DNA of 64,000 nt from Octopus vulgaris. Lineage: Eukaryota. The stretch covers positions 97,526,001 through 97,590,000 of the forward strand of contig OX597816.1 of NCBI GenBank assembly GCA_951406725.2, written 5' to 3'. Both the position numbers and the translations under genes were made by a program. The notes under the pieces were generated by a model. The model was not told where the DNA came from and ran no database searches. It saw only the letters and a program-made list of their open reading frames with translations. This document shows positions 3,090 through 64,000 of this stretch, piece after piece (the stretch's first letter is position 1; every line of letters starts with the position of its first letter).

Positions 3090-3990
3090 ATCCAGAATTA
3101 GGGTGTTGCGTCGATAATTAACATGCTAAGAAAATTTGCCCTTCTAATTTTGAGATTTTCCAAAAACACTCACCTTATTATAATGAAGCCCTGCGAGAGG
3201 CGGGATATAATAATAAAATCAAATTTTGCAATAATTTTAAATATGATTATAATATAAAAGATTCTAATATAAATGATTCCTATATATTTTTATAATAATA
3301 AACCTAGCATTAAGAATTATGATATTTTTATTTAAGTAATTATGGTATTAATATGTATTATGATAATACAAAACATAAATATAATAATAGATTAAAATAA
3401 GATTAAATTTAATTCATTTAATGATAATAATAAATTTAATTATATAAAAATAAATATAATAATATTAATAATAAGAACAAAATTTGGTTAATTATTCCTT
3501 ATGGAGCTCAAGTTAAAACAAACATTATTAAAGAGATTTTAACTATAATTGAAGTATTCATTAGAAATTATTTCTAGTAATAATTTTGGAGTTGGTTATT
3601 CTACTACTAATAATGATGGTAAAATTATTTCTTCTTTTAATAAATGTAAGCTTAATAAGTTTTACAAATCAAATTAAATAATTATTCCAACGATAATAAT
3701 AATATAATTAATTGTACGTGTAGAGATAAAACTAAATGTAATGTCGATGATGTAGTATATAAATATGTAGTGACTTTGGTGATAATAATAGGAATGGTTA
3801 GAATTTAAATGCAGTTTACATAGGGTCGACTTCTAATAAAATTATATTACGGGTGGATCAACATATGATATCTTTTAAGAATAGAAATTAAATTAATTCC
3901 CTAGACGAACGAAAAGTTAAATTTAGACATAAATTATATTATAGATATTAAATTTCTAAATGTCTCAAAGAGACATGGGCGGTGGTGGAG
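3090..3990 (+). pseudogene. Decayed Penelope-like retroelement (RT-EN linker and start of GIY-YIG endonuclease)
   Basis: Manual translation gives YYNEALREAGY (~3176-3210), IWFN-(frameshift)-PYGAQVKTNI (~3482-3525, cf. PLE IWFNPPYS..VKTNIG) and NCTCRDKTKCNVDDVVYKYVVT (~3710-3775, cf. CxCR...C...VVYK..VT). Many stops and frameshifts. Confidence 0.72.
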
Positions 3991-4159
3991 CGATGGAGTG
4001 GTTGTATACTGTCAACATAACGAGACAGTCCCGTAAGGGAATTACCACACCGCTGTTTAGCCCTAGGAAGCATCGACGCTTCCTGTCGGCCTTGACACAT
4101 TTCCTGTGTCCTTATATTTGCGAAGGGGAGGCAAGCACCCCCGCCAGCTAGGATTTACA

Positions 4160-4206
4160 CCTGAGGACATGCATGTTCCTGGGTCTTAACCCGTCATCAG
4201 CCCAGG
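4160..4206 (-). ncRNA. Hammerhead ribozyme, second copy, core mutated (GAAA to GGAA)
   Basis: Reverse complement matches 4364-4410 except a substitution at 4178 in the conserved GAAA. Confidence 0.75.
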
Positions 4207-4363
4207 ACAGTGAGGCCTGCTGGTTGAGATGCCTGTCTAGCCTTCGCAAATATATATATTTACAGTGAAATCTATTCACTGGTCACCGTAATTAGAAATA
4301 TTAAATTTCTAAATATCTCAATGGCCCATATAATAAAGATATTCAACTAGCAGGTCTCACTAT

Positions 4364-4410
4364 CCTGGGCTGATGACGGGTTAAGACCCAGAAACATGCA
4401 TGTCCTCAGG
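4364..4410 (+). ncRNA. Minimal type I hammerhead ribozyme
   Basis: CCUGGG-CUGAUGA-C-GGGU(UAAG)ACCC-A-GAAAC-AUGCAU-GUC^-CUCAGG. Intact core, 6-bp stem I, 4-bp stem II, palindromic stem III ACAUGCAUGU, GUC cleavage triplet at 4402-4404. Confidence 0.85.
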
Positions 4411-5007
4411 TGTGAATCCTAGCTGGTGGGGGTGCTTGCCTCCCCTTCGCAAATATAAGGACACAGGAAATGTGTCAAGGCCAACAGGAAGCGTTGATGC
4501 TTCCTAGGGCTAAACAGCGGTGTGGTAATTCCCTTACGGGACTGTCACGTTGCGTTGACAGTATACAACCACTCTAAATTATATTACTTATATAATAAGT
4601 TTAGATTATTTGTGTATATATATATAAACCCTGTTTTATATTACTAATTGTTGTAGTTTTAATTTGCAGTAGTAAAATGTGTATAAATTAGCTCGATATT
4701 ATATAGTCTATATTGCATAATTAGAATAAGTTGAAAATTAGATGTTTATATAATAAATAAATTAATTAATGAAAATATATTAAATTATAGAATTTTAGCT
4801 TAATTTATGTTTGTTATATTATGTATTTTACGTCTTTAGTATTTAAATTATTTAGACTTTACAATTTTTCCAGTTAATAGTATATTAAATTTAATATTTT
4901 TCCTTATTCTTACAACTGAAATGCATTTGTAATTTTAATAACTTAAATACATATTTCTATCTATTTCTTCTATAAATTCTATTTACGCCATATTTCCACG
5001 CGATATA

Positions 5008-25011: not shown

Positions 25012-25240
25012 TATCGTGAAGTATATTTGCCACCTAAATGTGGCTAACCCTTAAGGGTTGATTCTACTGTAGCTTGTAGCCTCAGGAGGACATCTCCAAA
25101 TGGCAATTGCCATACTATCTGTGCCCTACATAGTGTATCAATAGCCAGCCGGAGGAGATGTCTTTCTGGGGCTACAAGCTACAGTAGCATCCACCCTTAG
25201 TGGTTAGCCACATTTAGGTGACAAATATACTTCGTGATGT
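25012..25240. repeat. Foldback/MITE-like element with ~90-100 bp inverted arms
   Basis: GAAGTATATTTGCCACCTAAATGTGGCTAACC...TACTGTAGCTTGTAGCC / GGCTACAAGCTACAGTAG...GGTTAGCCACATTTAGGTGACAAATATACTTC. Confidence 0.88.
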
Positions 25241-61699: not shown

Positions 61700-64000
61700 G
61701 ACACCAAGTACTCAGTCTATCAATTATTGATCACCAGTCATGTTCCATTGCAAAGTCTTTGTGTTTCCAGATTGCGGAGTAGAATTACAGGAGTTCCAAC
61801 TTTAAGTGCTAATATGTGGGGAGTTAGTCCCGGGGAACTCCAACGGATTGAAAAATTCAGGAGTTTAGTTCACCATTTCATTTTTAACTGGAATTGTATC
61901 AACAGACTTGTAAGTGTGAAGAGTGCCGGCACGAGAATGCATGAGCTGTTTATTTATTATTTTAGCAGCGACGTTTTTTTGGAGCTAATATTGCTCTTTA
62001 ACACAGCCAATTGTGATTTTGGTATTTTTTTGTGAAGTTGGGAAATACTTTGTGTTTAAGCTCATCCACAGAATTAACAACAGAGGAAATGGCCACACTT
62101 CCATTTCTTCTGCAGCGTCGAGAGGCACCTTGCCATTATCAAGTGTCAAAATGTCCTGTGCAAAGTTTGCGAACATTTGGCCGCCGTGTAGCTGAGCTCT
62201 CATGTTAATGATAAGACTGAGGGTGGTAACATGATGCTACAGAGTAGAGGACTTTAGGCATGCTTGAATGGCATCTGCCCTAGTGCCTTTCTGAACGACA
62301 GGAAGAGTTTGCCTGAAATCACCTGAAAACAGAAGCGTTACACCTCCCATTGGAGTCTGACAGTATCGGATGTCTTTCAGGGCTCTATCTAATGCTTCCA
62401 ATGCTCCCTTGTGAGCCATGGTGTACTCATCCGAGTCGATTAGATGACACCTTTTAAGTACCTGCCCCTGATCTGAGCTTTTGCTGATGTTGCATGAAGG
62501 CATCTCGGATGCTGCTAAATTGAGAGGAAGCTTAAAAGTCGAATGTGCTGTCCTGCCACCAGGTAACAAAGTTGCTGCAATCTCAGAGGATACTGCAATG
62601 TCCTGGCGGCCTAACTTCTGCAAGGAGAAGCTTCGTAATAAATGTTTTTCCTATCCCCCCAAGAGCATCCAGGGAGAAGATTAGTCCCTTGTGTTTGCGT
62701 ACACTGTTAAGAATAGTTCTGTAGGCCTGAAGCTGAACCGGAAGTAATTTAAGTTCGTTTTCAACAATGTACTTTGAAAGCGATTGAATGTCATAGGATA
62801 TTTCACAAATGGCAGCAGTGGGAAGGCTATTTGACCCTGACCTGAATGTTTGTGGCATGCCATATGTGGACAATTCATTTCTACCCAGTGTAGCAGTTTT
62901 GCCTTTAATGTCAATGAGAGTTTTGTTGCAGACTACATTGCTGATACCCTCCATGTCAGGATAGAGCAGTTCAGCTTGCCGCTTAAAGTCTTCAGCCACG
63001 TTGTCTTTGTATTTGAGCCATAGAGTGGCAGGATCAGACGGTTCACATGTCTGTAGTAATACTGCAAATAGTGCCCTGAGTGTTTTAGATAATTCTAATA
63101 AACCAGTCTCTCACAAAATTGCATTCCATTGTGCGCCATCTTCTAACAGACATTGTCGATAGCCGGCTTCTCTGTATGTTGTGCAGACATGTCCATAAAC
63201 GGTTTTCAGGGCCTGGAAACACGTTGGCCCCCTGAATTCATGCAGTAGTAGAAGGAAGTAGAAGCGGTCTTGTTGAGTGGGATGCACTGTGTATACTCGC
63301 CCAAAGCAAGTGTCAAACTTAATGCCAGGGTATCCATGAACATTTTGATCTGCTTTCCTCAGGGCCCATATTTTCCATTACAAGTGTAGTACGATGGATA
63401 CAGCAAAGATTGAGCGAATAGATTAACTTGACAAAGCTTGAAGAATGCAATGAACGTGCTATCCTTTGGTTCCTCTGCCAACAGAGAAATATTAGCATCG
63501 GTGAAGTACAGCCTTTGACCGTTTTCCAGGTGCACTGCAAGCTGTGGAATGACGGTGTGTAGTTGGTGAAGTGGAAAGCCAAAGATGCGCCAGAAAGCCT
63601 CGTTGCTACTTATGTACCGTCAGACTTGATAATGCGTCACCTCATCCTGGCAGTATTTTTGTTGAATTCCAACCATTGCAGCGTCAGAACCCTTGTTCAC
63701 ATACTTACAAATGTACTTTATGGACTTAACGGAGTTGCAAAACTCGAAAGTCTTTAACAGGAGTGGGCAGTAGGTAACAATCCATCTATTATCAAACTCG
63801 TGCTGTCCGATAGTTGCTGTGAAACTGCCGCCTTTTGGGTTTCTCCGTCTGTATGATGGATACCTATCAGCGCCTGTCTGAGTTTCGTGTAGGAACCTCC
63901 TTGGAAATATTTTTAAACATACGCTGTCGTTCAAGCATAGTGAGTTTATGTTGAATCCACGCCCACATGGACCATGCACCATGTTTGCCTTAACTATTTC
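61700..64000 (-). pseudogene. Autonomous Helitron Rep/PIF1-helicase gene, disrupted, runs off the window
   Basis: ORF pieces: MVHGPCG...YRRR...DNRWIV...SVKSIKYICKYVNKGSD (Rep motif YxxKY), LDALGGIGKTF (Walker A), AATLLPGGRTAHSTFKLP, DE motif, GGVTLLFSGDFRQTLPVV, LRNL...LCNGT. Several frameshifts and stops. Confidence 0.93.

Follow-up and report, generated by a model that had tools for sequence, protein, structure and literature searches.

The inverted pair and its parts

Two GC-rich inverted arms lie at positions 3996-4227 and 4343-4574 of the window, by which we mean the whole 64,000-nt stretch of Octopus vulgaris DNA analyzed here. They differ at 11 of 232 positions and have a GC content of 0.53 and 0.51, compared to 0.20 and 0.17 in their AT-rich flanks, in agreement with the original prediction. 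The left side of the structure runs past its arm, to 3938 and 4321, and contains a 353-nt monomer plus a 31-nt repeat. Comparison of flanks indicates that the monomer is composed of segments X (232 nt), Y (58 nt), and Z (63 nt), and the unit is not the 232 nt that had been proposed.

The left side reads on the minus strand. Segment Y (3938-3995), recognized in a survey of outer ends at 49 loci, is an optional 58-nt tail of the hammerhead unit. Segment X forms the left arm (3996-4227), defined by arm comparison and covariation, and carries a hammerhead (4160-4206) and a chain of hairpins. Segment Z (4228-4290) is the region upstream of the unit, and a PSE-like motif at 4275-4284 suggests that it holds an snRNA-type promoter with a putative start near 4225, 58 nt downstream of the motif; the motif is degenerate in the unit subfamily found in the window. 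Z is preceded by the 3' part of another Y (4291-4321, minus strand), which repeats 3938-3968 over 31 nt at a spacing of 353 nt and makes the left side a partial tandem.

The right side reads on the plus strand. Its first 12 nt (4329-4340, with AATAAA at 4332-4337) are the 3' end of a 1.7-kb ORF1-only cassette that lies between units elsewhere; the same 12 nt precede X in cassette-bearing loci, and the junction recurs in L039. The right arm itself (X, 4343-4574) is 91-96% identical to the other full-length copies scored, and contains an intact type I hammerhead (4364-4410) with a predicted cut after 4404. There is no Z in front of the right arm, and the cassette end directly precedes it instead. 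The arm with a promoter region has a mutated core, whereas the arm with an intact core has no promoter region before it. At the inversion junction, 9 nt (4319-4327, minus strand) match cassette 3' ends in four loci (L007, L008, L025, and L029), a match that is at most suggestive of a short inverted piece of the 3' UTR of the ORF1-only element.

Identical 12-nt direct repeats at 3930-3941 and 4575-4586 (plus strand), the left of which overlaps the element end by 4 nt, bracket the entire inverted structure. Because of this duplication, and of target-site duplications of 9-13 nt in four other head-to-head loci (L017, L024, L027, and L063), a single event accounts for the inverted pair: a dispersed hammerhead repeat of 353 nt was inserted head-to-head. 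The locus itself is an ordinary insertion of a common repeat, and probably a dead copy since the core of its left arm is mutated. Among the sequencing-run matches listed, none was an empty-site joint for this locus. The flanks (3560-3930 and 4587-4960) are AT-rich and themselves repetitive in DNA-like sequencing runs.

Two further features of the window were observed. Positions 25013-25232 hold a second, older head-to-head remnant of another hammerhead-unit subfamily, 72-76% identical to the L211 type. A 175-aa open frame at 62586-63110 (minus strand), with a weak, below-cut-off match to PIF1 helicase (E 3e-4), is probably a Helitron remnant.

A type I hammerhead with a covarying fold

The hammerhead of the right arm is complete, with the type I core CUGANGA...GAAA...UH and stems I-III: stem I pairs 4364-4369 with 4405-4410, the core occupies 4370-4376, GAAA lies at 4391-4394, and loop 3 is palindromic. 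The left arm has GGAA in place of GAAA, at position 4178, while 67 of 71 distinct copies have A at the equivalent position. Judged from known hammerhead core requirements, this change probably impairs the left hammerhead. A type I hammerhead had been placed in each arm; this holds for the right arm but not for the core of the left, and the proposal that either strand would yield one ribozyme is accordingly doubtful.

The 34-nt hammerhead core has 46 exact matches in the genome and its reversed control has none. Across 18 units from several subfamilies, 88% of cells are paired and both sides change in 26 of 45 pairs, a count equaled in 0 of 500 shuffles, with a significance that is inflated by kinship of the units. 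Two-sided changes affect 6 of 6 pairs in stem I, 4 of 5 in stem II, and 3 of 6, 5 of 7, and 4 of 7 in downstream hairpins. The chain of four hairpins in the original prediction stands in part: two are well supported by covariation, and weak support was obtained for the first, with 82% of cells pairing, and for the fourth, with 67%. A terminal hairpin that it had not listed is also well supported. The Infernal search that it proposed gave no match between Rfam hammerhead models and the window locus (E<=1) or five other unit loci (E<=0.5), so the hammerhead call rests on motif and covariation. The palindromic loop 3 and an additional base that lies between positions 9 and 10.1 are shared with Penelope-like element (PLE) hammerheads, where a palindromic loop 3 and an extra base after core position 9 mark ribozymes that need dimers (PMC4209133). 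Four loci (L210, L260, L261, and L211) represent unit subfamilies that have non-canonical hammerhead cores and retain all stems.

Copies of the unit and their likely mode of copying

A search of the genome (2.8 Gb) gave 2669 first-look candidate copies of the unit, of which 40 were scored, and partial tandem as well as head-to-head arrangements were found among the loci studied, which are top-ranked matches and not a random sample. At 49 loci, 35 unit ends coincide with the end of X and 25 with that of Y, 14 continue in tandem, and 2 were unassigned. A microsatellite adjoins 32 of 60 terminal unit ends, and an A-run was present at 1 of 76 ends scored. Head-to-head arrangements comprise 17 of 59 locus records, three places having been fetched twice; beyond the four loci with duplications named above, the head-to-head loci lie in microsatellites or are not assignable. 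The inverted arrangement is a routine by-product and not a special design. In 20 further unit loci, Z lies directly before X in 17 and the cassette is absent from all 20. Tandems with two hammerheads occur in L180 and other loci.

Non-LTR retrozymes are non-coding repeats of 170-400 nt with a type I hammerhead and are linked to Penelope elements (PMC7229834; bioRxiv 10.64898/2026.07.22.740005). The unit is a non-coding type I hammerhead repeat in tandem copies with a period of 353 nt. Penelope-like insertions, as described in PMC3846280 and PMC8557442, show partial tandems, inverted copies, short duplications, and an optional tail; the unit has partial tandem and inverted insertions, an optional tail, and short duplications. 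The original prediction of a PLE pseudo-LTR (pLTR) or retrozyme-like unit with an inverted copy is therefore supported by the partial tandems, the head-to-head pairs with 9- to 13-nt duplications, the optional tail, and the microsatellite flanks. No Penelope ORF (RT plus GIY-YIG) joined to the unit was found: unit DNA had no significant match beside 76 Penelope-type locus records (30 + 30 + 16) sampled from the top-ranked families. Since no attached Penelope ORF was found in this sample, a retrozyme fits better than a pLTR of a known autonomous element. The unit is likely copied by Penelope-type machinery.

Candidate partners were rejected. An abundant RT plus GIY-YIG family beside L105 has a different 3' region and no match to the unit, and Neptune-type families likewise have no match. 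Three single adjacencies of LINE or cassette to the RT plus GIY-YIG family (L099, L105, and L226) are insufficient to name it as the mobilizer. LINE or cassette sequence is joined in the same orientation to RT plus GIY-YIG Penelope-type pieces in L324 (G000:C10:101155500-101159500), L099 (1300-1830), and L105 (6100-8100), and these joints are possible template jumps. L112-L141 represent a very young Penelope-type family, with 6622 candidates and a protein identity of 97-99%, at whose 3' end lies a hammerhead-like fold in which the core is altered.

An ORF1-only cassette and a LINE at the start of the unit

The cassette has a single ORF of approximately 460 aa with a CCHC knuckle and without an RT, open in 2 of 30 copies; the ORF family comprises 13,828 candidates, 147 of which were scored. 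At one locus (L212), a full LINE lies at the position of the cassette, and the cassette ORF is 30% identical to ORF1 of this LINE (E 4e-25). HAL1 (half-L1) is an ORF1-only non-autonomous derivative of an L1-type LINE. The cassette likewise contains only an ORF1 homologous to that of the LINE, has no ORF2, and makes its own duplications; unlike HAL1, it is target-specific and often lies in tandem arrays. An RRM fold was sought in the cassette ORF1, and a profile search matched zinc knuckles only (model pLDDT 39). The ORF is under purifying selection: comparisons between subfamilies within a set of 19 distinct open copies give dN/dS values of mostly 0.1-0.3 (0.24 for L064 compared to L057), young pairs give higher values, and many dS values are saturated.

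At their 3' ends, 30 cassette loci are followed by the unit (21), another cassette (2), or other sequence (4), and 3 were not classified. Cassettes 8% apart were found in units 48% apart, with shifted duplication offsets, and cassette and unit distances correlate weakly (rho 0.21, p 0.07, 18 of the 30 loci). Cassettes with 14- to 15-nt duplications also occur at non-unit sites (L059 and L061), and young cassette families occur in arrays without a unit (L096, L098, and L102). The latter are tandem ORF1-only cassettes with a period of approximately 1.8 kb, one with a 26-nt A-tail, and are reminiscent of HeT-A arrays. One cassette (L045), located at a site other than a U1 gene, starts with nucleotides 1-17 of U1 snRNA.

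ORF2 of the LINE contains an endonuclease, an RT, and a zf-RVT domain, and its best solved relative is human L1 ORF2p (E 1e-62). With ORF1, an ORF2 carrying AP-endonuclease, RT, and a C-terminal zinc domain, and target-site duplications, the LINE has the features of the L1 group. The family comprises 14,697 candidates (150 scored), including 5.3-kb tandem arrays and many open ORF2 frames. The 3' ends of the 30 closest copies are followed by the unit in 20, a U2 gene in 3, a short duplicated start and then the next element in 5, and Penelope RT sequence in 1, while 1 lacks a 3' end. All three U2 junctions fall exactly at U2 nucleotide 1 (Rfam). Eighteen further LINE ends were followed by the unit (11), U2 (1), a U1-like start in a U1 cluster (1), or other sequence (4), and 1 was not found. 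In a set made up mainly of copies from the most distant LINE subfamily, the unit was present at 2 of 17 3' ends and another repeat without an Rfam match at 8 of 17. Tx1-type target specificity is defined as more than 20% of flanks being of one type (PMC4494074), a level exceeded by the near subfamilies (20 of 30 and 11 of 18) and not by the distant set (2 of 17). The LINE is L1/Tx1-type and a candidate member of the Tx1 clade.

In 16 of 20 LINE loci, both ends of the LINE carry the initial 15-19 nt of whichever unit variant is present locally; of the others, 3 are 5'-truncated without an upstream half and 1 is not assignable. Duplication length and offset vary at LINE and cassette insertions, at about 10-19 nt. 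Over 18 loci (the 20 LINE loci minus 2 with truncated units), the distances between LINEs correlate with those between their units (rho 0.59, p 0.0025), a correlation driven by subfamilies, and LINE subfamilies have target preferences. Within one subfamily, 13 LINEs (including the two arms of one inverted pair) are on average 1.9% apart while their units are 19% apart (up to 29%), with a rho of -0.04, and near-identical LINEs (0-3% apart) lie inside units up to 29% apart. Since the distances are uncoupled within the subfamily, the unit is the target of the LINE and not part of it. Insertions recur at the same position in units that differ greatly from one another, and also at nucleotide 1 of U2: one LINE subfamily, with an RT identity of 95%, inserts into U2 as well as into several unit variants that differ by up to 29%, and the units entered by one cassette family differ by 45-50%. 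Because of the LINE, its U2 insertions, and the distance test, we dropped the reading of the 2.2-kb unit-cassette-unit copies as a non-autonomous, Terminon-like Penelope element with its own gag-like gene.

An upstream motif shared with U1 and U2 genes

ATCAGT or ATTAGT occurs at -61 to -57 in all 33 uninterrupted U1 and U2 genes fetched. Eleven regions upstream of units, which are related and not independent, were scored with a matrix built from 8 of these genes; in 9 of them the best site lies at -63 to -52, and these 9 have a proximal element approximately 60 bp upstream, as in snRNA-type promoters. In the unit subfamily of the window, the motif at -58 differs by one base and receives a poor score, the best site falls outside the expected range, and 33 of 43 copies of this subfamily have the degenerate motif. 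LINEs inserted in U2 genes read U2 promoter, U2 1-14, a 14-nt leader, and LINE, and the leader equals the unit start at 13 of 14 positions. These arrangements suggest that LINE RNAs start at the +1 of the host and carry it along, and that the LINE lands where transcription of the unit begins. A loose motif near +9 to +15 is also common to U1, U2, and the starts of units, and may thus give sequence recognition a part in site choice.

Proposed mechanism and alternative explanations

We consider it probable that the unit is copied by Penelope-type machinery and uses an snRNA-type promoter, and that its right arm in the window keeps 12 nt of the ORF1-only element of an L1/Tx1-type LINE family that inserts at the starts of units and U2. 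In the mechanism we propose, Y and Z of one copy would serve as the promoter of the next, which would be why copies come as partial tandems. Tandem transcripts would self-cleave, probably as dimers, to 353-nt monomers. The LINE would nick near +1, duplicate the first 10-19 nt, and then be transcribed from the host promoter, its site being chosen mainly by position, probably via contact with the promoter complex. Read-through past the AATAAA of the LINE would yield a composite RNA running from cassette into X, and such an RNA, copied, cut short, and inverted in one event, would have given the present, probably inactive, locus. More tentatively, and with less than even confidence, we propose a tether between the snRNA pre-initiation complex and an AP-endonuclease LINE with its ORF1-only satellites, by which these could enter any SNAPc-type Pol II gene at its start, their main host being a retrozyme that mimics an snRNA promoter. 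This would amount to a three-tier parasitism of Penelope, retrozyme, and LINE with ORF1-only riders.

For the choice of site, tethering is the reading we prefer, with a serious rival in which the LINE endonuclease would recognize a loose DNA motif common to the unit start and the U1 and U2 5' ends, as in known Tx1 elements, with no tethering. The first 15-20 nt of the targets do share a weak pattern, LINE subfamilies do prefer unit subfamilies (rho 0.59 over 18 loci), and target choice is mainly set by the endonuclease in PMC4494074; however, U2 and units that differ by up to 29% all serve one LINE subfamily, a cassette family inserts into units that differ by 45-50%, and duplication length and offset vary over about 10-19 nt. 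We regard endonuclease recognition as possible but somewhat doubtful. It bears only on the choice of site, while a different question is whether the LINE machinery rather than a Penelope-like element copies the unit, by 3' read-through with twin priming for the inversions. That no Penelope partner was found at the sampled loci, that the LINE family is abundant and many of its ORF2 frames are open, and that 9- to 13-nt duplications would also suit L1 are consistent with this. It is nonetheless unlikely given the rarity of A-tails at unit ends (1 of 76), the missing LINE 3' end, and the microsatellites at 32 of 60 terminal ends; the optional tail and duplicated inverted copy are hallmarks of Penelope (PMC8557442, PMC3846280), and start sites are taken by LINE insertions and not by unit insertions.

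Copying of the unit by Penelope-type machinery and its use as a LINE target also have to be weighed against the unit being the terminal repeat of the LINE itself, in a LINE-Penelope chimera inherited as one piece. Unit sequence does lie on both sides of full LINEs, 5'-truncated composites occur (the window, L008, L011, L021, L029, L253, L258, and L259), and L245 and L246 form one inverted pair. The presence of the same LINE inside U2 genes largely refutes a chimera, and LINE and unit distances are uncorrelated within a subfamily, the correlation of cassette and unit is weak, cassettes make 14- to 15-nt duplications at non-unit sites, and 20 of 20 further unit loci have no cassette; we thus find it very unlikely. 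Lower still, and close to negligible, is the chance that selection keeps the inverted pair as a source of double-stranded RNA or as a bidirectional ribozyme locus. Read-through across the pair is predicted to fold as a long duplex of 257 pairs, but the family often forms pairs of this kind (17 of 59 records), the left core is mutated, none of the 11 arm differences is compensated, and the flanks are repetitive too. As a separate observation, L245 and L246 (G000:C4:124124200-124137800), full LINEs that are almost identical to each other, lie together with units in one head-to-head structure, which may be a 6-kb composite copied whole.

Relation to known elements

Retrozymes, Penelope-type inversions, Tx1 targeting, and half-L1 elements are already known, and what appears to be new is a LINE on both retrozyme and snRNA starts. 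Within the literature searched we found no LINE that uses retrozyme and snRNA starts alike; Repbase, Dfam, and subscription journals lay outside this scope and may hold these families. The main text of an octopus repeat annotation (PMC13282606) lists L1-Tx1 and Penelope families and, in that text, has nothing on ribozyme, ORF1, snRNA, or target. Four points go beyond the original prediction: the unit is larger, the core of the left arm is mutated, there is a promoter-like region, and a LINE targets the unit.

Animal non-LTR retrozymes, as far as the two sources cited above describe them, resemble the unit in size class (353 nt here) and in being tandem or dispersed hammerhead repeats; the unit occurs mostly as short partial tandems and head-to-head pairs, and those descriptions include no parasitizing LINE. 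Insertions of PLE pLTRs (PMC3846280, PMC8557442, PMC4209133) share with the unit the partial tandem, the inverted 5'-truncated copy, the optional tail, an 8- to 10-bp duplication, (TA)n targets, and passenger sequence between the repeats. The tail is 58 nt here compared to 30-40 reported, no RT/GIY-YIG ORF is attached, and the passenger is a LINE remnant. Newt satellite 2, an amphibian hammerhead repeat, is reported to have an experimentally established snRNA-type promoter (cited in PMC2220036), whereas the promoter of the unit is a candidate based on motif position and retained leaders.

The Tx1-clade LINEs Keno (U2), Tx1 (Tx1D), and Tx1-Mar target snRNA genes or other transposons (PMC4494074). 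They resemble the LINE described here in belonging to the L1 group, in such targets, and in tandem copies that sandwich a duplication; in contrast, the insertion sites of one family here, always near nucleotide 1, include U2, probably U1, and many retrozyme starts that look unrelated. The Dictyostelium non-LTR element TRE5-A is placed by contact of ORF1 with TFIIIB, and an ORF1-only derivative (TRE5-A.1 / TRE5-A.2) is mobilized in trans (PMC3159450). Placement relative to a small-RNA promoter and an ORF1-only derivative are common to both; TRE5-A inserts approximately 50 bp upstream of Pol III genes, whereas here insertion is at the start of snRNA-type genes and protein contact is putative.

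If the proposed promoter arrangement holds, both the transcription of animal retrozymes and their occurrence as partial tandems would have a testable explanation, with tail and spacer being the external promoter of the next copy. The LINE is a candidate for placement by position at Pol II snRNA-type starts; in the literature examined, placement by position is so far known for Pol III genes. Such placement would explain purifying selection on the ORF1-only riders and would matter for site-specific integration tools. If tethering is correct, LINE insertion sites would also map unknown snRNA-type genes, for example at the repeats used by the distant LINE subfamily, which are candidates for unknown small-RNA genes. 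This subfamily lies at one position in the repeat without an Rfam match in nine loci (L265, L266, L269-L274, and L277), and uses another repeat in L275, L282, and L335.
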